Assembly (NCBI GenBank): GCA_001787005.1
Contig: MFUV01000005.1
Location: forward strand, 2,764-66,763
DNA from: Candidatus Nomurabacteria bacterium RIFCSPLOWO2_01_FULL_39_18
GTDB taxonomy: Bacteria; Patescibacteriota; Minisyncoccia; Phycocordibacterales; UBA9973
Direction of reading: 5' to 3'
Length of the DNA: 64,000 nt
In this document: one piece after another, positions 8,735 to 56,330 of the stretch
Numbering within the stretch: the first letter of the stretch is position 1
Layout of the letters: each line of letters begins with the position of its first letter
Notes under the pieces: generated by a model
Database searches by the model: none
What the model saw: only the letters and a program-made list of their open reading frames with translations
Told to the model about the DNA's origin: nothing
Position numbers and translations under genes: made by a program

Positions 8735-8811
8735 ACCCGGCAGTAGAGCTTGGCAATACTTATAAAGTAAATTTTTATTTTAAAAAAACTTTGCCAAGTC
8801 TCACTACCGGG
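8735..8811. repeat. REP-like hairpin element (ACCCGGtAGTAGAGCTTgG...CAAGTCTCACTACCGGGT), copy 1
   Basis: Imperfect long stem with conserved termini shared with copies at 12815-12854 and 37053-37122. Termini resemble the inverted repeats that flank the IS200/RAYT-like gene at 45576/46294. Confidence 0.5.
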
Positions 8812-10845
8812 TGCTATATTTCAGATGTGACAACAGAAGCTCAACATCTAGGAGGATTAAATAACGAACAAAAAGAAGCGGCGCTTCATATGAAGGGTCC
8901 TATGCTCATTATCGCGGGCGCGGGCGCGGGAAAGACTAAAACAATAACACACCGAATTGTGAATTTGATAAAGGAGGGTATCGTCCCAGATAAAATCCTG
9001 GCTGTAACATTCACCAACAAAGCGGCTAAAGAAATGCGAGAGAGGATTATCGCAGAAATTGAGAAAAATGCGGGAGAACAAGACTCCGTACCGTTTGTCA
9101 GCACTTTCCACTCATTGGGAGTTTTTATTATAAAAGAAAATGCCAGGGTTCTGGGACTAACAAAATATTTCACCATTTTGGACGAGTCAGATTCTACGAT
9201 ATTGATCAAAGAATCATTAAAAGAATTGGGGATAGATCCAAAACAGCATGACCCGAAAAAAATAAAAAACATTATCAGCCGAGAGAAGGGGAAGTTCGTG
9301 CATTTGCCTATGTTTACAGAAGAAAGAACGGATTATGTGGGCAAAATTGTGGCGCAAGTTTGGAATTTGTATGAAAAGAAAAAGGAAAAAGAAAATTCGC
9401 TGGACTTTGATGATCTGCTTTTGAAAGCAACGAAATTATTGCAAGAACGGGAAGAAATTAGGCAAATTTATCAAGAAAAATGGGAATATATTCACATCGA
9501 TGAGTATCAGGACACAAATGAAGTGCAATATTTAATGTCAAAATTGCTTTCTGAAAAGCATAAAAACATAGCTGTGGTAGGGGATGCCGATCAGAATATA
9601 TATTCTTGGCGCGGAGCAAATTTAAAAAATATTTTGAGTTTTGAAAAAGATTACCCTGACGCAAAGATAGTCTTGCTGGAGCAGAATTATAGATCAACAA
9701 AAAACATCTTGGAAGCCGCGAACGTAATAATTAAAAAAAATAAATACCGCCCAGATAAAAATTTATTTACGAAAAACGCCATGGGTGAAAAAATTGGTTT
9801 TTATGAAGCGCTTGATGAGACCGATGAAGCGGACTTTGTGGCAACAAAGATTTTGGAAATTTTGGACAGGGCTGGTGTTGCTTTTGAGAATGGTCTGGCT
9901 GGGGGAGGGACCCAGGAATCCGAGGACCTGAGCAAAAGCAACACCAGCCCTGTCCTCTCCAACATAGCAATTCTCTATCGCGCAAATTTTCAATCTAGGG
10001 CGCTGGAAGAAGCAATGCTAAGATACAACATTCCATATCAAGTTTTAGGTGTTAAATTTTTCGAAAGAAAAGAAATCAAAGATACTTTGGCATATCTGCG
10101 CGCGGCATTAAACAGAGACAGTCTTTCGGATATAAAAAGAATTATCAATTTCCCTGCGCGAGGCATAGGGAAAGTAACTTTGGTGAAAATTTTCGCGGAT
10201 GATATAGAGAACCTGCCAGTAAAAATGAAAATAAAAATTATTAATTTTTATGAAATATTGGAGGAGATAAAAGAAAAAATAAAAAGTGAAAAGGCAAGCC
10301 AGGTGATAAAATTCGTAGTGAAAAAGTCTGGCATTGAAAACGAATTATCGAGTGGCACCGAGGAAGACATGGAAAGACTTGAAAACATAAAAGAGCTTGT
10401 AACATTGGCCCTCAAATATGACAATCTGGCGCCAGGGCTAGGCATAGAAAAGCTTTTAGAAGATGCGTCGCTTGCTTCTGATCAGGATTCTTTGATTGAA
10501 AGAGGAGAGAAGAAAGAAGTAAAAAATTCAGTAAAATTAATGACAGTTCATGCATCAAAGGGGCTTGAATTCAAATATGTTTTCATCACTGGGCTAGAAG
10601 ATGGACTCTTCCCACACGAGAAACAAAATGAAGAAACTAGTATTGATAGCGAAGAGGAGCGCAGACTTTTCTATGTAGCGGTTACCCGGGCTCGGAATAA
10701 ATTGTTTTTGTCATTTGCAAATTTTCGCACTATCTTTGGTTCACGCTCCATTAATACTCCATCAGAATTTATTTCCGATATCCCAGCTGATTTATTAGAA
10801 AAAGAAGAAGAGAAAAATTTATTGAAAACAATTTATTTAGACTAG
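8791..10845 (+). CDS. pcrA: ATP-dependent DNA helicase PcrA/UvrD (SF1)
   Basis: Walker A IIAGAGAGKTKTITHRI, DEYQDTN, QNYRST, VKLMTVHASKGLEFKYVF, LFYVAVTRAR. The true start is probably the GTG at 8827 (MTTEAQHLGGLNNEQKEA..), just after the REP-like hairpin. The gene carries an 88-nt palindromic insert at 9866-9953. Confidence 0.9.
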   Translation: MPSLTTGCYISDVTTEAQHLGGLNNEQKEAALHMKGPMLIIAGAGAGKTKTITHRIVNLIKEGIVPDKILAVTFTNKAAKEMRERIIAEIEKNAGEQDSVPFVSTFHSLGVFIIKENARVLGLTKYFTILDESDSTILIKESLKELGIDPKQHDPKKIKNIISREKGKFVHLPMFTEERTDYVGKIVAQVWNLYEKKKEKENSLDFDDLLLKATKLLQEREEIRQIYQEKWEYIHIDEYQDTNEVQYLMSKLLSEKHKNIAVVGDADQNIYSWRGANLKNILSFEKDYPDAKIVLLEQNYRSTKNILEAANVIIKKNKYRPDKNLFTKNAMGEKIGFYEALDETDEADFVATKILEILDRAGVAFENGLAGGGTQESEDLSKSNTSPVLSNIAILYRANFQSRALEEAMLRYNIPYQVLGVKFFERKEIKDTLAYLRAALNRDSLSDIKRIINFPARGIGKVTLVKIFADDIENLPVKMKIKIINFYEILEEIKEKIKSEKASQVIKFVVKKSGIENELSSGTEEDMERLENIKELVTLALKYDNLAPGLGIEKLLEDASLASDQDSLIERGEKKEVKNSVKLMTVHASKGLEFKYVFITGLEDGLFPHEKQNEETSIDSEEERRLFYVAVTRARNKLFLSFANFRTIFGSRSINTPSEFISDIPADLLEKEEEKNLLKTIYLD
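9866..9953. repeat. Intragenic palindromic element inside pcrA, with 23-bp perfect terminal inverted repeats around a 37-nt GC-rich core
   Basis: ggacagggctggtgttgcttttg ... caaaagcaacaccagccctgtcc flank the core ggtctggctgggggagggacccaggaatccgaggacc. That core is the exact reverse complement of 11225-11261 in rsmA. It is translated in frame as ..AGVAFENGLAGGGTQESEDLSKSNTSPVLS.. Confidence 0.65.
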
Positions 10846-10882
10846 TTGAAAGTTATAAAGTTCATAAAGTTATAAAGTAAAA

Positions 10883-11851
10883 ATGCAAAAAGAAAGAAAA
10901 TACAAAGCAAAAAAGTCGTTAGGGCAAAATTTTTTAAAATCAGAACTGGCTTTAAAAAAAATTATTGAAGCAGGGGAGATAAAAAGGGGTGACATAATTT
11001 TAGAAATAGGACCAGGCAGAGGAGCATTGACCGAAAAACTTCTAGAAAAAGTTTACCTTGCTGGGGCGGGGCAGGGGTTGGTCATCGCAGTTGAAAAAGA
11101 CCGCGAGCTTTTTGAATTTTTAAAAACAAAATTTAAAAAAGAAATAGAGCAACGCTCTCTTGTACTAGTATATGGAGACATATTAAAATTTGATGCAAAA
11201 AAAACTGTTTTGAAGTTTTTTTCAGGTCCTCGGATTCCTGGGTCCCTCCCCCAGCCAGACCATTCAAAAAACTCAAAATCGTCTGATTTTAAAATAATTG
11301 CCAACATCCCCTACAACATCACTGGAGCGATTTTGAAAAAATTTTTAGGAGGGTTAAACCAACCGACAGACATGGTATTGATGGTTCAGCAAGAAGTCGC
11401 GAGGAGGATAATGGCCCGAGATAGTAAAGAAAGTATTCTTTCGATTTCTGTGAAGGCTTATGGTGAACCAAAAATTGTTATGAAGGTGCCAGCGCGATAT
11501 TTCAGGCCTGTGCCGAAAGTAGATTCAGCGATAATCATTATAAAAAATATTTCTCGCAAAATTTTTTCAGTATTACCCCCTCCGCCCAGAAAGTCTAATT
11601 GGGCACCTCCCCCTTATCAAGGGGGAGGTAGTAAAGAAGTTCAAGGTAAAACCTTGAACAGCCATGAATTTGAAGAGAAATTCTGGGAAATAGTGAAAGC
11701 GGGCTTTGCCCATAAGAGAAAAAAGCTCTCCAGTAATTTAAAAAATCTAAAAGACGGAAGCAAGGCTTCCGTCTCGAGCCTGGGAGATAGGAGAGCGGAA
11801 GATTTAACACTAGAAGACTGGATTGCGTTGTGTAAAAAGTGTTATAATTAA
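10883..11851 (+). CDS. rsmA: 16S rRNA (adenine1518/1519-N6)-dimethyltransferase RsmA/KsgA
   Basis: SLGQNFL, ILEIGPGRGALTEKLL, ANIPYNITGAIL. At 322 aa it is longer than typical RsmA because of two GC-rich in-frame inserts (11221-11268 and 11598-11634). Confidence 0.9.
   Translation: MQKERKYKAKKSLGQNFLKSELALKKIIEAGEIKRGDIILEIGPGRGALTEKLLEKVYLAGAGQGLVIAVEKDRELFEFLKTKFKKEIEQRSLVLVYGDILKFDAKKTVLKFFSGPRIPGSLPQPDHSKNSKSSDFKIIANIPYNITGAILKKFLGGLNQPTDMVLMVQQEVARRIMARDSKESILSISVKAYGEPKIVMKVPARYFRPVPKVDSAIIIIKNISRKIFSVLPPPPRKSNWAPPPYQGGGSKEVQGKTLNSHEFEEKFWEIVKAGFAHKRKKLSSNLKNLKDGSKASVSSLGDRRAEDLTLEDWIALCKKCYN
11221..11268. repeat. Intragenic GC-rich element in rsmA (tcaggtcctcggattcctgggtccctcccccagccagaccattc), inverted copy of the pcrA element core
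   Basis: 37 nt identical, and about 48 nt near-identical, to the reverse complement of 9891-9927. Flanked by an A/T-rich imperfect inverted repeat. Encodes FFSGPRIPGSLPQPDHSK in RsmA. Confidence 0.65.
11598..11634. repeat. GC-rich hairpin element cctccccc-ttatcaa-gggggagg inside rsmA
   Basis: 8-bp G/C stem with loop TTATCAA. The same loop and a near-identical stem (ccccctcc-ttatcaa-ggaggggg) occur at 19463-19485 inside another gene. Translated as PPPYQGGGS. Confidence 0.55.
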
Positions 11852-18645: not shown

Positions 18646-18710
18646 TAGTGAAGTGGGAAGTTGAATAAGAGAGAAAGATAGGACATCATTAGAAAATGAA
18701 TTAAAAAAAA

Positions 18711-19697
18711 ATGGATAAAGAAGAATTACAACAGAAAATAGCATTGTACTACTCAAAGCTTCCACCAAAAGCGCAAGCGGTTTTTTCCAGTATGAAATGG
18801 CTTGAGACTATAAAGAGCATAAGTGAAAAGTACGGCTTAAATGACAAACAGAAAGAGATACTCGGCACGGAAACAACTTTGGTGCTTTTGGGCATAATCG
18901 ATATAATCAAGTATGAAGAAATATTGATAGAAGAACTAGCATTATCGAAAGAGTCTGTAGATAAGATGCTTTCAGAAATAAACGATCTAATTATAAATAA
19001 TATACGACCCGAACTCATTGATGCATTCAACGCAAATAAAAATTCTCTAGAAAAAGAAAACCCAGAAATTGAACCAGTCTTAGACACACGTTTTGGGAAA
19101 TTATCACCGGATTTGGAAAAGATAATTGACGAATCCAATTATCAAGACATTCTCTATGGTATTGGCAAAGAGAAAAATTTCAGCGTTACGAAGATGGGAG
19201 CGCTTGAAAGAGCAACCACTGATCTAATAATGGGTACTATTCATCCAGATGAATTCGAGAATGTGCTAGAGAATAATTTAGAATTACCGCTAGAAAAAGT
19301 CAGAGAACTAGTAAATATTATCAACGAAAGAATTTTCAAAAAAATACGGGAAGAATTGATAAAGAATGTTGAGAGAAAAAAGATATTCGCGAACAAAAAA
19401 GCTGAAGAAAAACAGGATACGCAAGTATTGGGCGCCCACGGCATCGAGATTGTCGAGAATCCCCCCCTCCTTATCAAGGAGGGGGCGGGGGGTGGTAATT
19501 CAGAAGAGAACCACCCCGCCTCTGGCACCCCTCCTCAACAAGGAGGGGAAGAAACGCATCCCATATTAGCGCAAAAGTTATCCGGCCCTTATCAGGCTCC
19601 AGTAGTCAAGACGGACCACTCCTTGCAAAATCTTCAGCCTTCTTCTGAACAACAAAATAAGCCTGTAATTGATCCTTACCGCGAAATTCCGGAGTAG
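18711..19697 (+). CDS. Hypothetical protein (T4SS cluster) carrying a GC-rich palindromic insert near its C-terminus
   Basis: 328-aa ORF. The region 19461-19560 is GC-rich and palindromic (ccccctcc-ttatcaa-ggaggggg ...) and is translated in frame as PPLLIKEGAGGGNSEENHPASGTPPQQGGEE. Confidence 0.55.
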   Translation: MDKEELQQKIALYYSKLPPKAQAVFSSMKWLETIKSISEKYGLNDKQKEILGTETTLVLLGIIDIIKYEEILIEELALSKESVDKMLSEINDLIINNIRPELIDAFNANKNSLEKENPEIEPVLDTRFGKLSPDLEKIIDESNYQDILYGIGKEKNFSVTKMGALERATTDLIMGTIHPDEFENVLENNLELPLEKVRELVNIINERIFKKIREELIKNVERKKIFANKKAEEKQDTQVLGAHGIEIVENPPLLIKEGAGGGNSEENHPASGTPPQQGGEETHPILAQKLSGPYQAPVVKTDHSLQNLQPSSEQQNKPVIDPYREIPE

Positions 19698-23918: not shown

Positions 23919-23996
23919 GTGAAATTTAATGAGTGAAATGAATATAAATTTCCTCATCCCGTACTAAATTTTAGATTAAATGATATTAAAATAAAA

Positions 23997-25049
23997 ATGA
24001 TTATAAAAGATGAAAATAAATTAAGATTGAGAACTACAAGTAAAATTTTAGTACTGGGATTTATTTTTATACTCATAGGATTTTTTAGTCCGAGTCTAGA
24101 TGTAAACGCTGTGGAACAATACGGAACTTGTAATTGGGTTGAAGCTGAACAGAAAAGGAAGGAAGAAAATTATCTACAAGCAAATTGTTTAGCAAAGGGC
24201 AATACCGCAACTTGGGTAGGTTACTACTATCCCTTGGCTCCATTGCCTGGCTTGGGGAACAGGGAAGATGGAGGAATTGACACCGCGCAAATAGACAGCA
24301 CCGGAAAAAGCATTGCCTTGGGTGCATACCTAAACACAATGATAAAAATAATCATCGGAATTGCCGCAATTTTGTCTGTGGTTATGATTGTGATAGGGGG
24401 GATAGAATACATGACCTCTGAATTAATATCTAGTAAGGAAGCGGGTAAAGAAACAATAAAGAACGCGCTCTTCGGACTTCTGGTAGCTCTTGGCGCTTAT
24501 GCGCTTTTGAATACAATAAATCCGGACTTGCTGAAATCCGACCTAGACGTCCCAGGTGTGACTGTCACAGTAGATCTTGAAGCTGATGTCCCACAGACTT
24601 ATGACCCAGCAACCAGAAAATATGCCAATGGAGCTCTCTTTAACGCGCCATGGAATGACACAGTTGGGGGAATTACCCCAGCATGTACAACAGAAACTGG
24701 TACAGGATGTTTGCCAAGATCAGTTACTGCAAAACAACCAGAATGTTCTACTATTGGTCAACAAAATTGCACTTCAACAAGAGGTCTAAATACTAGTAAT
24801 TTGAGAACAATACAATATGGTTGTGGATGTAACGTATTAATCACTGGTGGAACAGAATGGTGGCTACACGGCGGGCGAAGTGGAAGTACGACCCATCAGT
24901 CTGGAAGTACGACCGTCGACCTTAGAACAACACCTGAATTGACTAGATATCTAATGGGTGGGACAACAGCTCCGGTCGCAGGACGAAGATACCCAACACC
25001 AGTTGGATCGGCATTGTTTGAAGGAAATCATTGGCACATTGGTCCATAA
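23997..25049 (+). CDS. VirB2/TrbC-pilin-like domain (two adjacent hydrophobic helices) fused to a Cys-rich extracellular C-terminal domain
   Basis: Helices KIIIGIAAILSVVMIVIGGIEYM and ALFGLLVALGAYALLNTINP, separated by a short polar loop, as in T4SS pilins. The C-terminal 150 aa have 8 Cys. Confidence 0.45.
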   Translation: MIIKDENKLRLRTTSKILVLGFIFILIGFFSPSLDVNAVEQYGTCNWVEAEQKRKEENYLQANCLAKGNTATWVGYYYPLAPLPGLGNREDGGIDTAQIDSTGKSIALGAYLNTMIKIIIGIAAILSVVMIVIGGIEYMTSELISSKEAGKETIKNALFGLLVALGAYALLNTINPDLLKSDLDVPGVTVTVDLEADVPQTYDPATRKYANGALFNAPWNDTVGGITPACTTETGTGCLPRSVTAKQPECSTIGQQNCTSTRGLNTSNLRTIQYGCGCNVLITGGTEWWLHGGRSGSTTHQSGSTTVDLRTTPELTRYLMGGTTAPVAGRRYPTPVGSALFEGNHWHIGP

Positions 25050-25130
25050 AATAATTTTACTTGTCCCGTACTAAATTTTTGATTACGGGGTATAATGATA
25101 AAAATTAATAAATAAAATTTTAGTATCGGG

Positions 25131-26495
25131 ATGTCAAAAAGAAACTTCACACTTTTAATAATAATTTTAATTCTAGGAACAGTCGGGTTTTTTGTATTTC
25201 TATATTCTCGTGGAGAGACACCTAGAGGAGAGGGAGGCGAGGGCACTAATTTCATCGCAAGGTTTAATCCATTCAGCAACAAAAAACCAGCGCCGGAAGA
25301 CACAGGGCCCACAGAGGATACCTCTTCACCTATAGAAGATCCTGAAGAAAAAATGCTGGAAGTAGAACTAAAAAAAGTTTCAAGTATGGAAATCGCTGGG
25401 TTTGGAGTATTTACGAAAGAAAGATTGAAAGAGATGAACCCCTCTCCAGCCCTCCCCTTGTCAGGGGAGGAAGAGAATCCTGCCCCCCCTGCTAAGGGGG
25501 GTTCGGGGAGTCTGAAACCCACACCGCCACCGACTGAATTTGCAACAGCAGTAAGATATGTGGCGAGAGCTACTGGGAACATTTATCAGACTTTCGCAGA
25601 CAAAATAATTGAGCGAAAGTTTTCTGGAACATTAATACCTAAAGTATACGAAGCGCATTTCGGCAATCATGGGGGATCTGTGGTGATGCGATACTTAAAG
25701 GGGGATGAAAAGACCATAGAAACTTTTTTCAGTGTCCTCCCGAAAGAATATTTGGGCGGTGATGCAACGGAAAACAATGAGATAAAAGGATCATTCTTAC
25801 CTAATAACATAAAAGATATAAGCCTTTCATCTGATACTTCTAAAATATTCTACCTTTTTGAGAGTGAAAGTAATTTAGGAGAAAGCATCATAGGCACAAC
25901 CTTGAGCTTGTTGGACAATAAAAAGGTTCAGATATTTGATTCTCCTTTTACGGAATGGCTGTCATCCTGGCCAAATAATAAAATTATCACCCTTTCCACT
26001 AAGCCTTCTGCGAACACTCCAGGATACATGTACAGCATTGATGGAGTTGGTAAAAACTTAACTAAAATCTTGGGTGATATAAATGGATTAACTACGCTCA
26101 CAAGTCCGGACGGAAAGTTGGTTCTTTACAGTGATAATAATCTAACTTCATATATTTACCATACGGATACTAAAAGTTCGGATTTATTGGGGATAAAAAC
26201 TCTGCCAGAAAAATGTGTCTGGGGGGGCGGGAGTGATATTTTTTACTGCGCTGTACCGAAATTAATTGGCGCTAGCCAATATCCAGATACTTGGTACCAG
26301 GGAGAAGAGTCATTTTCTGACCAAATTTGGAAAATAGATGTTGAAACAGGAAATGCCACCATGATCGAAGACCCGATCATGGCTCTGGGGGGAGAGGATG
26401 TTGATGGCATTAAGCTTGCTTTAGACGAAGGAGAGAGTTATCTATTTTTTGTAAACAAAAAAGATTCTTTTTTGTGGGAACTAAAGCTGAAATAA
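25131..26495 (+). CDS. Membrane-anchored protein with TolB-like beta-propeller repeats; hypothetical
   Basis: N-terminal TM helix LLIIILILGTVGFFVFLY. A GC-rich in-frame insert at 25452-25510. Repeats such as SPDGKLVLYSDNN. Confidence 0.55.
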   Translation: MSKRNFTLLIIILILGTVGFFVFLYSRGETPRGEGGEGTNFIARFNPFSNKKPAPEDTGPTEDTSSPIEDPEEKMLEVELKKVSSMEIAGFGVFTKERLKEMNPSPALPLSGEEENPAPPAKGGSGSLKPTPPPTEFATAVRYVARATGNIYQTFADKIIERKFSGTLIPKVYEAHFGNHGGSVVMRYLKGDEKTIETFFSVLPKEYLGGDATENNEIKGSFLPNNIKDISLSSDTSKIFYLFESESNLGESIIGTTLSLLDNKKVQIFDSPFTEWLSSWPNNKIITLSTKPSANTPGYMYSIDGVGKNLTKILGDINGLTTLTSPDGKLVLYSDNNLTSYIYHTDTKSSDLLGIKTLPEKCVWGGGSDIFYCAVPKLIGASQYPDTWYQGEESFSDQIWKIDVETGNATMIEDPIMALGGEDVDGIKLALDEGESYLFFVNKKDSFLWELKLK

Positions 26496-26578
26496 ATCAC
26501 CACCCCTGACCCCTCCTCGAAAAGGAGGGGAGGTCCCCTCTCCCCCTGCGAAGGGGGAGAGCTTGAAAGGCGAGGGGG
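26496..26578. terminator. Pair of GC-rich hairpins between convergent genes (cccctcc-tcgaaaa-ggagggg and ctctccccc-tgcgaa-gggggagag)
   Basis: Perfect 7- and 9-bp G/C stems immediately after the stop codons of 25131..26495(+) and jag(-). They belong to the same GC-rich palindrome family found inside genes. Confidence 0.5.
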
Positions 26579-39507: not shown

Positions 39508-40581
39508 CTACAAAAGCTTACTTTGTTTTTCTTTCACCTTAACCCCCAGATGTTCGTACGCCTTCTTGGTAGCCACCCGGCCGCGAGCAGTGCGCTCGAG
39601 GAGTCCAAGCTGGATTAAATATGGCTCTATTACTTCTTCCACTGTCGCTTCTTCCTCAGACATCGCTGCTCCGATAGTTTTCAATCCCACCGGTCCGCCA
39701 CCGAATTTCTTAATTAATATTTCCAGAAATTTTCTATCAGAAGGATCTAAGCCGAGTTCATCAATCGCCAGCATGGCAAGGGCACTTTTCGTTGTTTCTT
39801 TACTTATGGTTTTTTTGCCTGCCCCGTAGGAAGCAAGATTCCCTTCGGGGTGAACTTGAGCAAAGTCTCGGACTCGTTTTAAGAAATAGTTAGCCGTGCG
39901 GGGAGTGAACCTGCTTCGTTTAGCTATCTCTTCCAGAGCGCCACTGTCTAATTTTGCCTTAAGTAATTTACTAGATCTTTCTATTATTTTTTCAATCTCT
40001 TTATTTGAGTAAAATTCCAGCCTGAAAACTCCACCAGAGAATCTTGATCGTAGCGGTGAAGAAATCAAAGCTACTCGGGTGGTAGCCGCTATCAAGGTGA
40101 AAGGGGGGAGATCTAATTGAATTGTTCTGGCAGATGGTCCCTTGCCGAGGATGATATCTAGAACTCCAGACTCCATGGCAGGGTAGAGTATTTCTTCAAC
40201 CATTTTATTGAGTCGATGGATTTCATCAATGAAAAGGATATCGCCCGGGGATAAATTTGTAAGAATGGAAGCCAAGTCACCCACTTTCACGATTGCTGGT
40301 CCGGAAGTGATTTTTATTTGTCGGTTGGTTTCCTTGGCAATCAGATGAGCCAAGGTGGTTTTACCTAGACCTGGGGGACCATAGAAAAGAATGTGTTCTG
40401 GTATATGTCCGCGCTCTTTGGCAGCTTGTAAAAGAATTTTGACGTTATCCTTTATGTGTTTTTGGCCTATATACTCATCAAAACGCGTAGGACGCAAGGT
40501 CTGGTCCAAAAAAGAATCTTCAGATTTACTTGCCCCGCCCTGGCTTCTGGCGCTTGTTTCTTTGGTTATTTTGCTTGACAT
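39508..40581 (-). CDS. ruvB: Holliday junction branch-migration helicase RuvB
   Basis: ILFYGPPGLGKTTLAHLIA and DILFIDEIHRL. Carries a 30-nt GC-rich palindromic insert at 39821-39850, translated as PEGNLASYGAGKK. Confidence 0.95.
   Translation of the reverse strand: MSSKITKETSARSQGGASKSEDSFLDQTLRPTRFDEYIGQKHIKDNVKILLQAAKERGHIPEHILFYGPPGLGKTTLAHLIAKETNRQIKITSGPAIVKVGDLASILTNLSPGDILFIDEIHRLNKMVEEILYPAMESGVLDIILGKGPSARTIQLDLPPFTLIAATTRVALISSPLRSRFSGGVFRLEFYSNKEIEKIIERSSKLLKAKLDSGALEEIAKRSRFTPRTANYFLKRVRDFAQVHPEGNLASYGAGKKTISKETTKSALAMLAIDELGLDPSDRKFLEILIKKFGGGPVGLKTIGAAMSEEEATVEEVIEPYLIQLGLLERTARGRVATKKAYEHLGVKVKEKQSKLL
39821..39850. repeat. CCCCGTAGGAAGC...TTCCcTTCGGGG palindromic element inside ruvB
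   Basis: Imperfect palindrome. Same family as 53858-53889 (uvrA), 56331-56360 (intergenic), and the degenerate copies at 2877-2908 and 35497-35527. Confidence 0.6.
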
Positions 40582-40866: not shown

Positions 40867-40980
40867 GTGAGGAATAAAATATGAAAGTTTTAGAGCACGG
40901 ATATTTTTTTGCTAAAAAATTCCTCGTGCTCGCACCGTCGTGCTCCCAAGTCTCTAAAACTTTCATATTTTATTCCTCAC
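40867..40980. mobile_element. MITE-like element with 29-bp perfect terminal inverted repeats (GTGAGGAATAAAATATGAAAGTTTTAGAG)
   Basis: Left arm 40867-40895 and right arm 40952-40980 are exact reverse complements. A 56-nt GC-richer core has its own inverted repeats. The right arm encodes the last three codons (SEE) and the stop of pilB. Confidence 0.5.
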
Positions 40981-42691
40981 TTAGATCCACCACACTTCGC
41001 ACTTCTTCGAGTGAAGTAATTCCATTTAATACTTTTACCAAACCATCCTGGCGCATTGAAAGTATCCCTTGATTGCGCGCCACTCTCTTGATTTCATGTT
41101 CACTCGGATTTTCAGGCATTATTTTCTCAACCGCTTCATTGGTTATAATCGCCTCAAAAATTCCTATTCTTCCATTGTAACCAGTTTTATTACATTTCTC
41201 ACAGCCGACTGGAGCGAAAAATTTAACAGGCGCGTCTGGGTTTATATTATAGCTTGTGAGGCTTTTGCCCTCATCTTTGATGCTATCCATCACTAGTTTT
41301 ACAGTTTTCGATTCCTCTTCAGTCGGCGTATATTCTTTCCTACAAAATGTGCAAAGAATACGCACCAAGCGCTGAGCCATGGAAAGGGACAGCGCTGAGA
41401 CCAAAATTTTTGGGTTCACTCCAAGGTCAATAAGACGCGGGATGACACCGGCGGCGTTGTTGGTGTGAAGTGTTGAGAAAACCATGTGGCCGGTCAAAGA
41501 CGACTGCACTGCGATTTCCGCTGTATCCCCGTCACGGATTTCTCCAACCATTATTACGTCTGGATCTTGCCGGAGTGCCGAGCGTAGTCCTTCAGGGAAA
41601 GTATAGCCTCTTTTCAGATTTATTTGGGTTTGAGTTATGCCAACTAAATGATACTCCACCGGATCTTCAATGGTGATTATATTTATTTCCGGTGAATAAA
41701 TTTTTCGCAAAAATGCGTAGAGAGTCGTAGTTTTACCAGAGCCCGTTGGACCCGTGACCAGAATCAAGCCGTTTGGTTTTTTGATTTGATCTTGGACGAT
41801 TTTAAAAAGGTATGGTTCAATTCCTAATTTTTCAAATTCCACCTGGATGGATTTCGGATCCAATATACGCATAACAATTGCTTCACCGTATGCACCGGGG
41901 ATTAAGGAAACACGGATATTTATTTCCTCATCTTTTTCCATAATATTGAAGCGCCCATCTTGGGCTACTTTTGAAGTTAACTTCATTCCCGAGAGGAGTT
42001 TAATGCGAGAATTAAGTAAGCGATACACATCAGATCCAAAAAAGTTTATATCCTGAAGCACCCCATCAAGCCGCAACCGCAGTCTGCTCCTGTCTTTCTC
42101 TGGTTCTATGTGCACGTCAGAAGCGCGAATCGCTATTGCTCCAGCTAAAATTATTTCGAGCAGACGAGAAATTCTATGAGTTTTATTCGCTTCCAAAGTT
42201 TCTACTACTAATTTTTCAATATCTTGGATGTGATGTATGTTCTTCGCCGTATTTGTTAAAATTTCTCCGGAAATATCTAAACCCCCGATTCTAGAACTTT
42301 CAGCCATTGAAAGCTCCTTATATCTTTCCCAGACCTTGTTTAGACTTGCGCTAGATGTCATATAGAAAGTCGGATTCAGATTTTTTCTTTCCATATCTTC
42401 TTTTAGTTTTTTAAAAAGATCCTCTGAAGGCGCGCGGACAGCTATATAGACGTTATCTCCGAACAGTTTAAAAGGTGCGACTTTCATCGCGATGGCGTCA
42501 GCCTCCGGAATCGCTCTCAAGGCTTCATTATCCACACCAATACGATGGAGATCAATATAGGGGAGACCGTATTTTGATTCGGCCAAAGTTGCTACTAGTT
42601 GCTCTTCCTCTTGTTTATGCAATTCTTCTAGTTGCCTATTTTGTTTTTCCTCATTAAAATCCTTTGCCACACATAAAGTATACCCCCACAC
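40970..42691 (-). CDS. pilB: Type IV pilus / type II secretion assembly ATPase (PilB/GspE family)
   Basis: N-terminal GspE-N domain. Walker A LVTGPTGSGKTTTLYA. Asp box. C-terminal tetra-Cys CTFCRKEY...CEKCNKTGYNGRIGIFE. The true start is probably the internal GTG (..AKDFNEE), because the track start lies inside the 23-bp palindrome. Confidence 0.85.
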   Translation of the reverse strand: MWGYTLCVAKDFNEEKQNRQLEELHKQEEEQLVATLAESKYGLPYIDLHRIGVDNEALRAIPEADAIAMKVAPFKLFGDNVYIAVRAPSEDLFKKLKEDMERKNLNPTFYMTSSASLNKVWERYKELSMAESSRIGGLDISGEILTNTAKNIHHIQDIEKLVVETLEANKTHRISRLLEIILAGAIAIRASDVHIEPEKDRSRLRLRLDGVLQDINFFGSDVYRLLNSRIKLLSGMKLTSKVAQDGRFNIMEKDEEINIRVSLIPGAYGEAIVMRILDPKSIQVEFEKLGIEPYLFKIVQDQIKKPNGLILVTGPTGSGKTTTLYAFLRKIYSPEINIITIEDPVEYHLVGITQTQINLKRGYTFPEGLRSALRQDPDVIMVGEIRDGDTAEIAVQSSLTGHMVFSTLHTNNAAGVIPRLIDLGVNPKILVSALSLSMAQRLVRILCTFCRKEYTPTEEESKTVKLVMDSIKDEGKSLTSYNINPDAPVKFFAPVGCEKCNKTGYNGRIGIFEAIITNEAVEKIMPENPSEHEIKRVARNQGILSMRQDGLVKVLNGITSLEEVRSVVDLSEE

Positions 42692-42725
42692 TTATTTTAT
42701 TCAAAATAAGTGTGGGGGTATACTT
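42676..42725. promoter_or_regulatory. Perfect palindrome with 23-bp arms and a 4-nt loop in the divergent pilB/polA promoter region
   Basis: aagtatacccccacacttatttt-attc-aaaataagtgtgggggtatactt. Immediately followed by TATAAT (42732-42737) and the polA ATG at 42745. Confidence 0.5.
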
Positions 42726-42744
42726 AAGTGGTATAATTTTCACA

Positions 42745-45135
42745 ATGAATAAAGACAAGAAAACACTGGTCCTGCTCGATGCTCACGCTATCATACATCG
42801 TGCTTATCATGCCTTGCCAGAGTTCTTGTCGTCGAAGGGCGAGCCCACTGGGGCGCTCTATGGACTCTCTACCATGCTGATGAAGATAATTGCTGATCTA
42901 AAACCCGATTACATCGTGGCTTGCTATGATTTACCGGACAAAACTTTTAGGCATGAAGCATATGATGGCTATAAAGCAGGCAGGGCGAAAACAGATGATG
43001 CGCTCATTTTGCAATTAAAAAACTCTCATCAGATTTTCGAAGCATTTAATATACCCCTCTATAATGCGCCAGGATTTGAAGCGGATGATGTGCTGGGGAC
43101 GATAGTAGAGAGATTCAAGGGGGACAAAGATCTGAACATCATCATTGCTTCTGGCGATATGGACACGATGCAGTTAGTCGATGATAAAAAAGTGCAGGTT
43201 TATACTTTGAAGAAAGGCATCAATGATACAATTTTATATGATGAAGAAAAGGTGGTGGAGAGATTTGGTTTTAAGCCCAAATTTTTGCCGGACTACAAGG
43301 GGCTACGTGGCGACCCATCGGATAACATCAAAGGCATTAAGGGAATCGGAGAAAAAACAGCGCAGACCCTGATAGTAAACTTCGGCACGATTGAAGAGAT
43401 TTATAAAAAAATAAAAAAAGATGAAAAATCTTTCACCATAGCCGGGGTTAGTCCTCGAATGATCGAGTTGGTAAAAAATAACGAAGAAGAAGCTTTATTT
43501 TCGAAAACTCTGGCGACAATCCGGACTAATGTGCCGATAGATTTTAAAATACCGGGAAAAACTTTTTGGGACAACGCTGATCTAAAAAAGATTGAACAAG
43601 TTTTCATATTATTTGAATTTCGTTCTTTATTTGCGCGTTTGAAAAGCTTTTTTAGAAAAAGTGGGAACGAAAACAGCTCTAACCAGCTTCTTTTTGTCGA
43701 AGAAAATAAGACGAACGAGAAAGATGTAGATCCGATTAAACTTCAAGAAGCTTCTATCGCGCTTTGGCTTATCAACTCGGATATCTCAAATCCAAGCTTA
43801 GAAGATATTTTACAATTTGCCAATACGGATGATTTTATTGTGGCATATGAGTATATTTTAAAAGAGCTAAAGGAGAAAAAACTAGATTTAGTATTCTCCG
43901 AAATAGAGAAACCCATTATGCACACAGTAAAAGAGATGGAAGACTACGGGATTCTGATAGATAAAAAATATTTTAAAAAATTATCTGATGAATATCATAG
44001 AGAATTAGATATATTGACGAAAAAAATTTACAAAATGGCTGGCATGGAATTTAATATAAATTCACCGAAACAATTAGGCGAAATTCTTTTCGATAAATTG
44101 GGCATGAAGTCAAGCAAAAAGAAAAACGCAAGTGGATCTTTCTCCACTAAGGTTTCTATTTTGGAAGAATTAGAAGATGAAAATGAGATCATAAAAGAGA
44201 TACTAGCCTATCGCGAACTCCAGAAATTGCTTTCTACTTACATTGATGTAATACCCAAGATGGTGGGGGAGGATGGCCGTCTACATGCGAAATTTCTGCA
44301 AAATGGGGCGACGACGGGTAGATTCTCTTCACAAGATCCAAATTTACAGAATCTGCCGATAAAAACTGAACTAGGCAGAAGGATCAGAAGCGGATTTGTA
44401 GCGACGCCTGGGCACAAACTTTGCGCTTTCGATTACAGTCAGATAGAGCTGCGGGTGGTGGCAATGCTCTCGGGAGATAAAAAGATGACGCAAATATTCC
44501 GTGAGGGGAAGGATATTCACGCGGGCGTAGCGTCTTTTGTATTCGGAGTACCTATTGAGAAGGTTGATAGTGAAATGCGCCGCAAAGCAAAAATAATAAA
44601 TTTTGGCATTATTTATGGCATGGGGATTTCTGCCCTGAAGAAGAACCTCAAAGGCACGCGCGAAGAAGCGCAAAAATTTCATAATAATTATTTTAATCAA
44701 TTCTCCGGCGTACGAGATTATTTAGAAGAGGTGAAAGCTTTCGCCCTTAAAAATCTCCACACTGAAACCCTATTCGGTCGGCGTCGATATTTCCCTAATA
44801 TAAATTCCAGAATCCCATTTTTGAAAAATATAGCAGAACGTACAGCTACCAATGCTCCGATTCAGGGCACAGCCACGGCTGACATCATTAAGCTTGCCAT
44901 TCGATATGCCGATGAAGATTTAGAGGCGGCAGGAATAAAAGATCGAGTTCATCTCATTCTCCAGATACACGATGAACTGGTATATGAAATACATGAAAGC
45001 GCGACAGAAAAAGCTTCCAAGATAATAAAAAAAGCGATGGAAGGGGTGCTGGAACGTTCATATCTTCATTTTAAAACAGACATCCCGCTAGTTGTTCATT
45101 CTAGTTCAGGGAATAATTTCGGAGAGGTGAAATAA
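42745..45135 (+). CDS. polA: DNA polymerase I (5'-3' exonuclease + polymerase domains)
   Basis: 5'-nuclease motifs in the N-terminal 250 aa. Polymerase motifs DYSQIELR, RRKAKIINFGIIYGM and QIHDELVYE. The start is taken as the MNKDKK Met; the track ORF begins upstream inside the palindrome. Confidence 0.9.
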   Translation: MNKDKKTLVLLDAHAIIHRAYHALPEFLSSKGEPTGALYGLSTMLMKIIADLKPDYIVACYDLPDKTFRHEAYDGYKAGRAKTDDALILQLKNSHQIFEAFNIPLYNAPGFEADDVLGTIVERFKGDKDLNIIIASGDMDTMQLVDDKKVQVYTLKKGINDTILYDEEKVVERFGFKPKFLPDYKGLRGDPSDNIKGIKGIGEKTAQTLIVNFGTIEEIYKKIKKDEKSFTIAGVSPRMIELVKNNEEEALFSKTLATIRTNVPIDFKIPGKTFWDNADLKKIEQVFILFEFRSLFARLKSFFRKSGNENSSNQLLFVEENKTNEKDVDPIKLQEASIALWLINSDISNPSLEDILQFANTDDFIVAYEYILKELKEKKLDLVFSEIEKPIMHTVKEMEDYGILIDKKYFKKLSDEYHRELDILTKKIYKMAGMEFNINSPKQLGEILFDKLGMKSSKKKNASGSFSTKVSILEELEDENEIIKEILAYRELQKLLSTYIDVIPKMVGEDGRLHAKFLQNGATTGRFSSQDPNLQNLPIKTELGRRIRSGFVATPGHKLCAFDYSQIELRVVAMLSGDKKMTQIFREGKDIHAGVASFVFGVPIEKVDSEMRRKAKIINFGIIYGMGISALKKNLKGTREEAQKFHNNYFNQFSGVRDYLEEVKAFALKNLHTETLFGRRRYFPNINSRIPFLKNIAERTATNAPIQGTATADIIKLAIRYADEDLEAAGIKDRVHLILQIHDELVYEIHESATEKASKIIKKAMEGVLERSYLHFKTDIPLVVHSSSGNNFGEVK

Positions 45136-45549: not shown

Positions 45550-45575
45550 TTTTGGATAGGTAAAGTAACCAATAA

Positions 45576-46318
45576 GAGCTTTAGACTCTCACTGCGAGTT
45601 ATGATATAGTAAGATACATGCGGAAGGAACCACTAATAACGGGAGAGTATTACCATATTTATAATAGAGGCGTAGATAAGCGAGATATTTTTAATAATCT
45701 GAAAGATCTCGAGCGTTTTAAAGAAAGCATAAAACAATTTAATCAAATTGAAGGCATTGGTAGTTTAGAAATGTACAATAAATCAATAAGAGCTTTAGGC
45801 TCTCACCCCGACAGTTATCTGAAATTAAAATCAGAACCACTTGTGGCTATCATTGCTTTTTGTATCAACCCCAATCATTTTCATTTTCTTATTAAACAAC
45901 TTGTCGACGGCGGGATAGCTAAATTTTTTCAAAAACTTCAGGGTGGGTATACTTATTATTTTAATCAAAAAAACCAGAGATCGGGGGCACTACTTCAGGG
46001 GACTTTTAAATCTAAATTAATTAAAAATGATGATTATTTCAGAAAAACATTTGCATATGTAAATCAAAATTATTCTGTTCACAATATTCCTAAAAGCAAA
46101 CTTCCTTTTATTTTTGCAAGTGACACGGAATATGAAAGCGAGCTTTTTAATTTAGTGTCAAAGTCTGAAGGACAAAAGATGCTAGACATTTTTGAAGGTA
46201 AGAATAATCTTAAAAAACATTGTAAAGAAATTATATCAATTATTCGAGAAGAACGGGGGAAAACTTCCCTAGAAGAACCGGATGAATTATTTCAGTGAGA
46301 GTCTAAAGCTCTCACTGG
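45576..46318. mobile_element. IS200/IS605-type (RAYT-like) unit: Y1 HUH transposase gene flanked by 20-bp perfect inverted repeats
   Basis: Left AGAGCTTTAGACTCTCACTG (45576-45595) and right CAGTGAGAGTCTAAAGCTCT (46294-46313) are exact reverse complements. The right flank itself forms a 9-bp-stem hairpin. Confidence 0.6.
45618..46298 (+). CDS. IS200-like / REP-associated tyrosine transposase (HUH Y1 family)
   Basis: YHIYNRGVDKRDIF..ERF, HuH motif NPNHFHFLIK, and YFNQKNQRSGALLQGTFKSKLIKNDDYFRKTFAYVNQN (catalytic Tyr region). These align closely with IS200 TnpA blocks. Confidence 0.8.
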   Translation: MRKEPLITGEYYHIYNRGVDKRDIFNNLKDLERFKESIKQFNQIEGIGSLEMYNKSIRALGSHPDSYLKLKSEPLVAIIAFCINPNHFHFLIKQLVDGGIAKFFQKLQGGYTYYFNQKNQRSGALLQGTFKSKLIKNDDYFRKTFAYVNQNYSVHNIPKSKLPFIFASDTEYESELFNLVSKSEGQKMLDIFEGKNNLKKHCKEIISIIREERGKTSLEEPDELFQ

Positions 46319-46835: not shown

Positions 46836-46911
46836 AATACTTGTCCCGTACTAAATTTTTGATTATGACACATGACCATTATTAATAAAAACTTAAAATT
46901 TTAGTACCGGG

Positions 46912-47607
46912 ATGATTTATCTTTTTTCTGGCGATGATGTGAAGAATAAACACCTCTCTTACGAGAAGTTTATAAAATCCCTGCCTGCGCAGGCAGGTAT
47001 TCCAGCGAATACTGAAACCTTTTTTATAAACAGAAATGATTTTAATAGGAATCAGATAGAAAGTCTTTATTCTGGGTCAGGTCTTTTTTTCGAAGATTGC
47101 GTAGTGGTATTCCAAGATGTTTTCGAGAGAGAAGAAACTCGAGAATTTGTTTTAGAGAAGTTGGATTTAATGGGCAAATCTTCCAGCTCTTTTGTTTTTC
47201 TAGAAGGTAAATTAAATAAACCGATTCTAGATGCTTTCAAGAAAATCGAGCCAAAAAAACTCCAGATTAATATTTTCGAATTACCGAAAGAAAAAAAGGA
47301 GAAATTCAATAATTTTCTTCTAGCCAATGCTTTTGGAGTTAGAGATAAATTAAATCTTTGGATTTATTTCCGGCAAGCTGTCGACCTCGGGGTGGGGATG
47401 GAGGAGTTGATCGGAGTACTTTTCTGGAAAATCAAGGATATGCTAATAAAAAAAGATTTCCGCAAATTCTCCGAAGCAGAACTTAAAAATTCCGCCTCTC
47501 GCCTCTCCTACCTTTTACCAGAAGCCCGCAAGGCTAGTCGTGACGCCGAAGCAGTCTTTGAGCAGTTTTTGCTTGAAGCTTTTTTAAAGAGTACTATAAT
47601 TAAGTAG
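46912..47607 (+). CDS. Hypothetical protein, possibly a short DNA polymerase III delta-subunit-like (HolA-like) protein
   Basis: N-terminus MIYLFSGDDVKNKHL resembles HolA starts. Contains the in-frame 18-nt palindrome CCTGCCTGCGCAGGCAGG (LPAQAG) at 46980-46997. The ATG abuts an inverted-repeat right arm. Confidence 0.35.
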   Translation: MIYLFSGDDVKNKHLSYEKFIKSLPAQAGIPANTETFFINRNDFNRNQIESLYSGSGLFFEDCVVVFQDVFEREETREFVLEKLDLMGKSSSSFVFLEGKLNKPILDAFKKIEPKKLQINIFELPKEKKEKFNNFLLANAFGVRDKLNLWIYFRQAVDLGVGMEELIGVLFWKIKDMLIKKDFRKFSEAELKNSASRLSYLLPEARKASRDAEAVFEQFLLEAFLKSTIIK

Positions 47608-48628: not shown

Positions 48629-48829
48629 CTTGTGATAGTATAAGAAATAAGGCTAAAAATCAAGAAAAATGGTAATATATTAGTATGTTTAAGATCAGCA
48701 AAACGTTGTTGTGCTTTCTAATTTTAACGATAGTAAGTTCTTTGTTTGCTTACACTATTATAGTAAAAGCATACGAAAATGCATATCCCGACTATTTAAT
48801 CCAATAAATTTTCGTGTTAAGGTGTAACT

Positions 48830-56260: not shown

Positions 56261-56330
56261 TTTAAACTGCAAAAGGCATACTATATAAAAATGAAGTTCG
56301 AAACAAGAATCTGCCAGAACCCCGAAGGAA

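Follow-up and report, generated by a model that had tools for sequence, protein, structure and literature searches.

The window, by which we mean the whole 64-kb stretch of DNA analysed here, derives from a groundwater bacterium with a tiny genome. Two neighbouring essential genes, encoding a PcrA/UvrD-type helicase and the 16S rRNA dimethyltransferase RsmA/KsgA, each carry one copy of the same short repeat in frame, and the two copies are inverted relative to each other and 1.3 kb apart. The features are as follows (the arms have no strand).

8791–10845, plus strand: host gene 1, PcrA/UvrD-type helicase (Pfam UvrD-helicase, 8e-85; UvrD_C, 6e-64)
9864–9886: left copy-specific arm of the helicase palindrome; encodes DRAGVAF and starts at the conserved Asp codon GAC
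9882–9937, minus strand: constant unit of ~56 nt, helicase copy; T-run, CTCA, core, ATTCT and A-run in element orientation
9892–9928, minus strand: 37-nt GC-rich core, helicase copy; exact match to the rsmA core, read by the gene as GLAGGGTQESED
9933–9955: right copy-specific arm of the helicase palindrome; encodes KSNTSPV
10883–11851, plus strand: host gene 2, RsmA/KsgA 16S rRNA dimethyltransferase (Pfam RrnaAD, 1e-49)
11208–11222: left arm of the rsmA copy, decayed; TTTTGAAGTTTTTTT, encoding VLKFF, part of helix alpha-D
11216–11271, plus strand: constant unit of ~56 nt, rsmA copy; 93% identical to the helicase copy
11225–11261, plus strand: 37-nt core, rsmA copy; sequence GGTCCTCGGATTCCTGGGTCCCTCCCCCAGCCAGACC, read by the gene as GPRIPGSLPQPD
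11266–11278: right arm of the rsmA copy, decayed; AAAAAACTCAAAA, encoding KNSK

The core at 9892–9928 is the exact reverse complement of 11225–11261, a match found in 0 of 100 shuffles, and no third core copy occurs in the 64-kb window when up to three mismatches are allowed. A first-pass annotation of this DNA had recognised the inverted exact repeat and placed the rsmA core correctly, but gave the helicase core as 9891–9927. The similarity that it estimated at about 48 nt does extend beyond the core, reaching 56 nt at 93% identity (9882–9937 versus 11216–11271). The perfect 23-bp inverted repeat that it reported in the helicase gene is also present, at 9864–9886 and 9933–9955 rather than at 9866–9888 and 9931–9953. 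DNA folding of the 92-nt helicase palindrome gives −35 kcal/mol (z = −8.7); self-folding of the 56-nt shared part by itself is not significant (z ~ −0.5). Around the rsmA core, the A/T-rich imperfect inverted repeat described earlier is a decayed repeat in which 11208–11222 pairs with 11266–11278 with one indel. The orthologous rsmA arms in L002 measure 21–25 bp.

The PcrA/UvrD and RsmA assignments of that annotation hold, as do the peptides that it quoted and its statement that both host frames are open. Because the open reading frames 8791–10845 and 10883–11851 both continue across the element, the inserts are probably translated; across the family, copies inside genes would add 19–30 residues of coil. 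In the helicase, the insert takes the place of a short loop directly ahead of motif IV (..LYRANFQSR), and residues 362–390 stand opposite 5 residues of the solved protein in the alignment with PDB 1pjr. The RsmA insert follows helix alpha-D and precedes the ..IANIPY strand, with residues ~113–130 left unaligned against PDB 6ifs. In the AF2 model of RsmA, residues 105–113 form a helix and the insert is coil (pLDDT ~49–60); the helicase insert is low-confidence coil in a model that is poor overall (pLDDT 57.5) and serves for the local coil assignment only. The inserts are gaps against solved PcrA, KsgA and MnmA. Judging from these alignments and models, they occupy tolerant loops that appear compatible with the host fold.

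Distribution and coding context of the repeat family

We scanned for the family with one degenerate pattern of 22 specified bases, for which ~0.1 chance matches are expected. At least 117 stretches with at least 129 copies were recovered from about 70 Nomurabacteria/Paceibacteria species genomes, all Patescibacteria, with several copies per genome, these per-genome counts being lower bounds. The copies come from independent assemblies spanning many projects and sample types and lie in at least 32 unrelated host contexts. Among the matches listed, 68 of 129 (53%) are internal to a coding sequence, with at least 40 codons on both sides of the copy, and the remainder includes intergenic DNA; the further copies that the first-pass annotation proposed to look for, intergenic ones included, exist. 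Hosts among the matches listed include PcrA, RsmA, the CCA-adding enzyme, TsaD, MnmA, SMC, UvrA, a class-V aminotransferase and glycerate kinase, with intact Pfam domains flanking the inserts on both sides. Where spacing could be judged (JBAZSF contigs), there is about one copy per 30 kb. A scan of viral contigs for the core returned 0 matches, and a search of Rfam 15 at permissive thresholds gave only generic hairpin matches below the gathering score.

Inside genes, the insertions seen all keep the frame and avoid stops. Five of the six frames (P0, P1, P2, G0 and G1) are used within coding sequences among the matches listed; the sixth has a TGA and is used by none of them. The family is a repeat dispersed in palindromes that stands in frame inside unrelated housekeeping genes of Nomurabacteria and Paceibacteria, and it belongs in this respect to the behavioural class of the Rickettsia palindromic elements (RPEs), as had been proposed from the two window copies. 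It is previously undescribed: we found no account of such elements in CPR (Patescibacteria) in the searchable literature, in line with the earlier remark that this behaviour is not generally described for CPR-like genomes.

A large part of bacterial diversity belongs to the Patescibacteria, whose genomes are very small and densely packed with genes and whose mobile DNA is little known. The family shows that their housekeeping proteins have been repeatedly invaded by short read-through palindromic repeats, which are a source of new protein loops and account for odd length variation and low-complexity "inserts" in CPR orthologue alignments. Gene calling, alignment, phylogeny and structure prediction for CPR proteins can all be led astray by such elements.

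Copy-specific arms, flipping centres and turnover

In the 129-copy alignment (A2), the constant unit corresponds to the conserved columns ~22–77 and reads T-run, TCA, the 37-nt core with its own 5-bp hairpin, ATTC and A-run, ~56 nt in all. It sits at the apex of a ~22-bp inverted repeat whose sequence is different at every site while complementarity is kept, the common part being junctions of ~5–8 nt. The 23-bp repeats in the helicase are such copy-specific arms and not, as first annotated, the terminal inverted repeats of the element itself. Arms have a median length of 22 bp with 2 mismatches, versus 5 bp with mismatched partners. In a formal count of the arms, paired cells make up 87.2% of the total versus 69.1% in shuffles, and the covariation score is 0.415 versus 0.118 when shuffled (0/500 shuffles) and a maximum of 0.219 with slid partners. 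Of the outer-helix pairs, 20/28 have changed on both sides. The inner stem also covaries (C:G in 67 copies, T:A in 59, broken in 3), and both of its states are found within single genomes. Mismatches that could form a wobble on the transcribed strand are not enriched (39 G.T versus 97 A.C), which places the complementarity at the DNA rather than the RNA level.

We considered whether the arms are carried by the element. This was ruled out because one genome has five copies whose cores are identical but whose arms are unrelated, and because the arm codons at the glycerate kinase site match the codons of the empty allele on both sides. The helicase arms, for their part, start at a conserved Asp codon. 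These comparisons show that arms, of about 20 bp, are built from local host sequence.

Orthologous sites show that the insertions are patchy and long-lived. At the orthologous helicase site, L002 matches the core at 37/37 positions and L001 at 36/37, and in L002, L003 and L093 the arms differ in sequence and retain complementarity. The core is likewise present at the matching RsmA position in most orthologues. Both sites are filled in many species at protein identities of 57–87%, often in opposite orientation, and both are empty in some close orthologues (rsmA: L001, L056, L123 and L124; helicase: L004, L096 and L122–L124). The earlier description of an insertion into loops stands, given the empty close orthologues and the loop gaps; the insertions are not recent or private to this genome, given the many species with filled sites. 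The repeat is also not unique to the two window loci. We found no pair of filled and empty sites at strain-level identity. Conservation of the core at sites filled in many species could mean purifying selection for function instead of homogenisation.

The centre occurs reverse-complemented within matching arms in cluster 6 (L039/L112 versus L019) and at the helicase, rsmA and glycerate kinase sites, and a second element family flips as well. Insertion hotspots hold several element families stacked in tandem, and several unrelated centre families are interchangeable at one site. Core differences average 2.24 within a genome versus 3.21 at the same site across genomes (permutation p < 0.0005), suggesting from sequence comparison that copies evolve in concert within genomes. 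Some copies are damaged: the rsmA copy of L003 has an internal deletion with arms intact, and P0244 retains a single arm. One-arm alleles such as that of the L004 helicase had been considered as evidence of a pre-existing host arm, and we dropped this argument because P0244 indicates that such alleles can be deletion derivatives.

Origin of the repeat and competing explanations

We think it likely that the two window segments are copies of a dispersed, selfish, RPE-like DNA repeat of Nomurabacteria and Paceibacteria, with a constant unit, locally made arms and a flipping centre. The element would act at the DNA level. Its constant unit would spread from site to site within a genome, or be made uniform there, through transposition or short-tract gene conversion. 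Arm complementarity would be made and maintained with one flank serving as the template for the other, either when a flank is copied in inverted form during insertion or at a later time, through quasi-palindrome template switching in replication. The asymmetric centre would flip between two orientations inside its arms, and copies would decay through internal or one-arm deletions. A further-reaching version can be put forward only tentatively, namely that this is a new kind of bacterial mobile DNA: the ~56-nt unit may integrate so as to make its host flanks a perfect palindrome (an inverted "target duplication"), or be processed later to the same effect by replication or an HUH/Y1 enzyme, and may then flip at the apex. 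If true, a rolling-hairpin-like or template-switch mechanism would operate within chromosomal genes and steadily make new peptide loops in essential CPR proteins.

The conserved unit could instead be a host-beneficial DNA motif at the apex of a hairpin or cruciform, a recognition site for a cellular protein with each copy kept by selection. Nucleoid organisation, replication or repair, and restriction-modification are examples of the role that it might have, with compact genomes forcing the motif into coding sequence. Such selection would fit a core that is ~90% conserved at shared sites where host proteins are only 57–75% identical and flanking codons have diverged, the compensatory changes in inner stem and arms, the Watson–Crick complementarity at the DNA level, the spacing of copies (about one per 30 kb on the JBAZSF contigs), and the many hosts that are DNA-repair genes. 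We nevertheless consider it unlikely, since sites are filled patchily and stand empty in close relatives, copies are found decayed (L003 rsmA) or as one-arm deletion derivatives, and unrelated centre families replace one another at one site and stack in tandem. Moreover, genome-specific core signatures are more simply explained by homogenisation, and no candidate binding protein was identified.

The first-pass annotation called the element MITE-like, which is apt for a small, dispersed, non-coding sequence that lies between inverted repeats and whose inner T-run/A-run junction is conserved. A classical MITE, derived by deletion from a DDE-type insertion sequence, mobilised in trans through terminal inverted repeats of its own and leaving direct target-site duplications, is nonetheless improbable. 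Each copy has long inverted repeats of its own, made from host sequence, and the part conserved among copies is a short T-run/A-run junction; there are no direct duplications of fixed length, and no full-length or autonomous partner with the same core or ends was found in ~1 Mb of related DNA or in the viral contigs. Next to the arms, direct repeats hardly exceed the shuffled control and show no preferred length.

That the repeat works at the mRNA level, as a structured hairpin through which the host message would be regulated in its translation, stability or processing, strikes us as very improbable. A long stable stem with covariation and a conserved apex would suit such a role, but at one site the element occurs in both orientations relative to transcription, some copies are intergenic, the transcribed strand shows no excess of G.U-compatible mismatches, no Rfam family matches, and the strictly kept frame with avoidance of the stop-containing one suggests that it is translated through. 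Chance similarity, private gene conversion between neighbouring genes or an assembly artefact might have been entertained for a window with just two inverted copies, but is refuted because at least 129 copies occur across independent assemblies, those in genes always in frame.

Comparison with known repeats and candidate mechanisms

RPEs are short palindromic repeats of several families that lie in frame in Rickettsia genes (Ogata et al. 2000 Science 290:347, summarised in PMC10969869 and PMC1166351). The repeat described here resembles them in consisting of short palindromes of several families in a reduced, AT-rich genome, intergenic as well as in frame in unrelated housekeeping genes, with positions retained in related species, an extra loop peptide that is tolerated and no known transposase. 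It differs from RPEs in its host phylum, in being read in five frames, in having the centre in both orientations within matching arms at orthologous sites, and in hotspots that stack several families in tandem. RPEs are roughly 100–150 bp long, versus ~56 nt for the constant part here, and their stem is part of the family consensus, whereas the long stem here is copy-specific and derives from host sequence; the present family consensus includes the junctions of ~5–8 nt and not the long stem. Given phylum, length and composition, homology to RPEs proper is unlikely and the likeness would be behavioural. The family offers a second independent system beside Rickettsia for the question of how selfish DNA colonises coding sequence.

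REPs and REPINs are extragenic, and their conserved part is the stem (two REPs) around a variable spacer (PMC3116915, PMC3337134, PMC3479197). Our family shares with the REP/REPIN-RAYT systems DNA-level hairpin repeats, compensatory change, long vertical persistence and concerted evolution within genomes, but has a conserved centre and a variable stem and is 53% CDS-internal among the matches listed. The window also encodes a Y1_Tnp/RAYT-like gene, with homologues in three related loci (L039, L088 and L030), and as in REP/REPIN-RAYT systems inverted hairpins bracket the gene in the window and in each of these loci. Unlike REP sequences, these hairpins do not resemble the core in sequence, occur almost only at the Y1 loci and are not dispersed, and the proposal tying the window gene to the element was dropped for that reason. 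No PDB entry matched the Y1 protein by sequence. Hairpin-specific single-strand Y1 (HUH) transposases are the most plausible enzyme class, as candidates only. IS200/IS605-derived (PATE-like) hairpin elements have no terminal inverted repeats or target-site duplications, carry subterminal hairpins that are recognised in single-stranded form, insert beside a short fixed target and have a cognate TnpA(Y1); the lack of target-site duplications, the conserved inner hairpin and the Y1 genes in these genomes would be compatible with such an origin.

Yeast mitochondrial GC clusters are mobile GC-rich palindromes in AT-rich organelle genomes, with an optional in-frame cluster in var1. The present family is similar in forming GC-rich palindromic islands of several families in AT-rich DNA, optional between strains and occasionally in frame, but it is bacterial and those clusters are organellar. 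To our knowledge, GC clusters do not have copy-specific arms built from host sequence.

Parvovirus flip/flop terminal hairpins, generated by HUH endonucleases, are telomeres of linear single-stranded DNA replicons. They share with our element an asymmetric centre in two reverse-complement orientations on a symmetric stem, and the HUH/Y1 class is encoded in these genomes; the element is a chromosomal insert, unlike a telomere, and the analogy is mechanistic only. Quasi-palindrome template-switch mutagenesis is reportedly a replication error that perfects imperfect inverted repeats at single hotspots in E. coli (Ripley; Lovett and co-workers). It would explain the DNA-level covariation of arms and inner stem without selection, and we know of no description of it building 20-bp arms around a dispersed repeat. 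The combination of constant centre, local arms and flip/flop yields sequence-level predictions on hairpin-templated DNA synthesis or HUH enzymes.

Net insert lengths are +57–66 nt in rsmA, +57–60 in MnmA, +63–81 in the helicase, +66–72 in glycerate kinase and +90 in UvrA, and they do not all fit any one model of how the arms form. The loops of the host proteins vary in length between species.

An element shared by the helicase and rsmA genes

The 37-nt GC-rich core GGTCCTCGGATTCCTGGGTCCCTCCCCCAGCCAGACC lies within rsmA, and its exact reverse complement lies within the gene for the PcrA/UvrD helicase. Shuffled sequences gave no match to the core, and a search of the 64-kb window at ≤3 mismatches gave no third copy.

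8791-10845: ORF of the host gene, PcrA/UvrD helicase
9892-9928, minus strand: 37-nt core, exact reverse complement of the rsmA copy (helicase copy)
10883-11851: ORF of the host gene, RsmA/KsgA
11225-11261, plus strand: 37-nt core GGTCCTCGGATTCCTGGGTCCCTCCCCCAGCCAGACC (rsmA copy)

The first-pass annotation had described an exact core, inverted between the two genes and bracketed by arms; this was accurate, except that its coordinates were 1-2 nt off. Across 56 nt, helicase positions 9882-9937 and rsmA positions 11216-11271 are 93% identical. A perfect 23-bp inverted repeat (9864-9886/9933-9955) encloses the helicase copy, and the rsmA copy is bracketed only by a decayed A/T-rich repeat. The 92-nt helicase palindrome has a predicted DNA fold of -35 kcal/mol (z = -8.7 vs shuffles); the shared 56 nt alone fold no better than shuffles (z ~ -0.5).

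Both inserts are gaps relative to solved homologues: helicase residues 362-390 stand opposite five residues of G. stearothermophilus PcrA, directly ahead of motif IV, and RsmA residues ~113-130 are without a counterpart in the alignment with B. subtilis KsgA. In the AlphaFold model of RsmA, residues 114-135 form a coil (pLDDT ~49-60) that separates helix 105-113 from strand 136-141, and the helicase model, poor overall, also has coil at the insert. The gaps and the low-confidence coil between regular elements agree with the initial proposal that the inserted segments sit in loops. Judging from the nucleotide sequence, the element would be read through as peptide, FFSGPRIPGSLPQPDHSK in RsmA and FENGLAGGGTQESEDLSK in PcrA. 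RsmA has a second hotspot of variable inserts at the junction of the methyltransferase and C-terminal domains (window ~11570-11650, residues ~230-254, SVLPPPPRKSNWAPPPYQGGGSKEVQGKTLNS), which is highly variable in the RsmA orthologue alignment (A1) and predicted as low-confidence coil.

Dispersal, reading frames and orthologous sites

We ran a degenerate pattern with 22 specified bases on a collection of species-representative genomes. At least 117 stretches match, and the core is thus not unique to the two loci, in keeping with its earlier reading as an inserted repeat. Among the matches listed, every one comes from a MAG of Nomurabacteria, Paceibacteria or Patescibacteria; the MAGs stem from many projects and often contain several matches. 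All genomes are MAGs, and the copy numbers are lower bounds. The 129 copies listed comprise 55 core variants, and 101 of them lie within stop-free stretches of at least 100 codons, in 32 unrelated host clusters. By position, 68 are clearly internal to a coding sequence, 34 lie at the edges of ORFs and the other 27 are short-ORF or intergenic. Other hosts among the copies listed include the CCA-adding enzyme, a class-V aminotransferase, TsaD, SMC, MnmA, UvrA and glycerate kinase. Where copies lie near recA, RF and RecJ, they are at the 5' edge. Five reading frames are used (GPRFSGSLSRPDH, RSSVLRVPIPARP, QVLGSPGPYPGQT, NGLAGIGTRRTEDL and WSGRGRDPENRGP). The sixth has a TGA in the conserved flank and never occurs inside an ORF among the copies listed.

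Orthologue alignment revealed the same sites filled, reversed, otherwise occupied or empty among relatives, as expected of insertion. Most RsmA orthologues (57-75% identity) have FSGPR[IF][SP]GSL[SP][QR]PDHSKN at the same position, some have NGLAG..T..TEDL.K, which is the element in the opposite orientation, and the remainder have other peptides or, in a few cases, nothing. The motif-to-motif distance in rsmA is exactly 46 residues at 12/12 intact filled sites in either orientation, 42 residues in the related locus L003, which has an internal deletion, and 24-27 at empty sites. In helicase orthologues (76-87% identity) the insert site is a hotspot that contains the same element either way round, several other peptide families, tandem stacks of 2-3 elements, or nothing. 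Among individual related genomes, L001 has a 36/37 core in reversed orientation at the helicase site and an empty rsmA site, both genes of L002 have a 37/37 core, the L003 helicase has a variant core, and L004 has the element in rsmA only. Decay takes the form of internal deletion with intact arms (~24 bp, L003 rsmA) and of single-arm alleles (P0244, at the glycerate kinase site). At the "empty" rsmA site of L056, a small arm-only hairpin, TGCGCTAGGC-AAG-GCCTAACGCA, sits exactly at the position of the element in other genomes; it may be a footprint of centre loss or a pre-existing target hairpin.

A constant centre, in either orientation, between copy-specific arms

A gapless alignment of the 129 copies (A2) defines a ~56-nt constant unit, ...TTTTT-n-TCA + core + ATTC-n-AAAAA..., whose flanks are without consensus, yet within each copy they are complementary to one another. 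The median arm is 22 bp long with 2 mismatches, compared with 5 bp if the left flank of one copy is combined with the right flank of another, and 87.2% of alignment cells are paired in the proposed structure (69.1% in shuffles). Covariation scores 0.415, compared with 0.118 in shuffles (0/500 reach it) and ≤0.219 with slid partners; kinship of the sequences inflates the shuffle-based value, and the slide control and within-genome contrasts are independent of that. In the outer helix, both members have changed in 20/28 pairs, and all four Watson-Crick types are represented. Of the pairs in the inner 5-bp stem of the core, one varies: it is C:G in 67 copies, T:A in 59 and broken in 3, and the C:G and T:A states coexist in single genomes on otherwise identical cores. 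This pair occupies A2 columns 45 and 59 (core positions 15 and 29), and both changes are CCGG to CTGG, each on its own strand, the pattern expected if 5-methylcytosine deaminated at a putative CCGG methylation site and the partner was then corrected.

Folding of the mRNA was considered as the keeper of this complementarity. The transcribed strand shows no enrichment of wobble-compatible mismatches, both orientations of the element occur, and some copies are intergenic; it is therefore at the DNA level that the complementarity is maintained. Copies outside coding sequence have the better-preserved arms (median score 17 vs 14, p = 0.0002), and no Rfam family matches the element.

The arms are not element-borne, because genome JBAZSF has five copies whose cores are identical and whose arms are unrelated. 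In glycerate kinase, where the majority of orthologues have an empty site (KIFS-AKEENTVV-LAAGEP), the filled allele has an inner left arm, AAT GAA GGA, that matches host AAA GAA GGC, and an outer right arm, GGT TTT GTT, that matches host GGT TTC GTT, each with a complementary copy on the opposite side. Helicase arms begin at a conserved Asp codon regardless of the family inside, and the RsmA left arm codes for the end of helix alpha-D. These host-matching arms argue that complementarity arose by inverted copying of local sequence. The inverted copy would be made at insertion, or later via quasi-palindrome template switching. Net insert length is +57 to +90 nt, depending on the host, and the relatives offered no filled/empty pair at strain-level identity.

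At orthologous sites, identical arms hold the centre either way round. In the cleanest case (host-gene cluster 6), L039 and L112 differ from L019 only in that CTCA-core-ATTCT is reverse-complemented between identical arms, and the glycerate kinase site has a similar flip. If the 46-nt centre is inverted in silico in the helicase copy of the window, the product is FAQVLGFLGPSPSQTILKS, a peptide type found in other genomes. Likewise, "family 2" and "family 4" of the helicase site (peptides RGVSQADGPRGSAPRARGDSDP and SLSVRARTALPLGSSACETP) are the two orientations of a single DNA element (L016, L031, L054, L068, L076, L093, L103, L118), and other centre families have the same architecture. A third family, LERTLGRSDGDGQRKFSAENFRGESE, occurs at the helicase site, at the rsmA site and also elsewhere (L017, L113). 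Mean core differences are 2.24 for copies of one genome, 3.36 for copies from different genomes and 3.21 when the same site is compared across genomes (permutation p < 0.0005); cores evolve in concert within genomes. We infer that the element is mobile.

A candidate enzyme, known systems and other repeats

The window encodes one candidate of the Y1 (HUH) class.

45618-46298: ORF of 226 aa, IS200-like/RAYT-like Y1 (HUH) gene; Pfam Y1_Tnp 30.6 bits (cutoff 23)

In NCBIfam the best match is to "REP-associated tyrosine transposase" (REP_Tyr_transpos), under the curated cutoff, and the protein has an HUH-like NHFHFLI motif. The gene lies between an inverted pair of copies of the hairpin CAGTGAGAG-TCTAAAG-CTCTCACTG (45570-45594, 46293-46317), and a third copy sits within it at 45785. 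The homologues in L039, L088 and L030 are each flanked by a hairpin of their own, with an internal copy ~215 nt downstream. None of these hairpins is related to the core, and they stay local to Y1 genes; the link between Y1 and the element is therefore by enzyme class only. As hairpin-specific single-strand DNA transposases, Y1 enzymes are a candidate mobiliser; such genes occur at ~4 per Mb of sampled DNA.

REP/REPIN elements are extragenic, with a conserved stem, a variable spacer and a RAYT flanked by the same REP (PMC3116915, PMC3337134), and the element departs from them in all these respects. Nor does the earlier label "MITE-like" apply in the classical sense: the copies have neither shared TIRs nor target-site duplications. 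The comparison with Rickettsia palindromic elements (RPEs) fared better. RPEs are several families of short palindromic repeats in coding and non-coding DNA that are read through (PMC10969869; PMC1166351), with 728 in R. felis, 85 of them in ORFs (PMC1166351). The repeats described here likewise form several palindromic families that invade coding and non-coding DNA, in frame and with apparent read-through. They differ from RPEs in phylum and size, in their constant centre with copy-specific host-derived arms, and in their flip/flop states, five-frame use and tandem stacks at hotspots. The first-pass annotation held that such behaviour is not generally described for CPR-like genomes, and we found no account of such an element in CPR/Patescibacteria in the literature searched, whose coverage was incomplete.

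Other repeats in the window

40867-40980: intergenic palindrome of the same build, 29-bp arms (94% over 34 nt), 56-nt centre
50181-50266: in-frame palindrome of the same build in uvrB (ORF 48821-51112)
55712-55803: in-frame palindrome of the same build in uvrC (ORF 54929-56260)
11605-11629, 19463-19485, 19528-19548, 25451-25470, 25484-25501, 26510-26530, 26538-26561: CCCCTCC(T) hairpin family
23951-24060, 25058-25132, 46838-46913: three copies of intergenic repeat TCCCGTACTAAATTTT...AAAATTTTAGTAC(C/T)GGGAT (families D1, D7, D14)
2878-2911, 39809-39834, 53877-53902, 56320-56353: recurrent motif CCTGCCCCGTAGG/CCTACGGGGCAGG, both orientations (families I8, I16)
60289-60397: 57-nt unit in two tandem copies, 83% identical, CGAAT/GCGAAT-rich (family D11)
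42676-42725: perfect hairpin AAGTATACCCCCACACTTATTTT/AAAATAAGTGTGGGGGTATACTT, stem ~21-23 bp

The uvrB and uvrC palindromes have site-specific 18-19-bp arms and a GC-rich 50-54-nt centre, with a TTTTTG/CAAAAA junction and an inner hairpin of its own in uvrC; a search of ~1 Mb of related DNA gave no further copies. No other copy was found of the intergenic palindrome, which lies upstream of a T2SSE-type ATPase gene (40970-42691, minus strand). The short perfect GC-rich hairpins CCCCTCC(T)-loop-(A)GGAGGGG form a second family, unrelated in sequence to the core, with five within ORFs (rsmA, ORF 18705-19697, ORF 25116-26495) and two between convergent genes. The TCCCGTACTAAATTTT...AAAATTTTAGTAC(C/T)GGGAT repeat is an inverted repeat with a ~50-nt A/T-rich spacer ahead of genes; it may serve as a promoter or operator, or represent another repeat family. 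The hairpin at 42676-42725 sits where the ends of ORFs 40970-42691 (minus) and 42658-45135 (plus) overlap.
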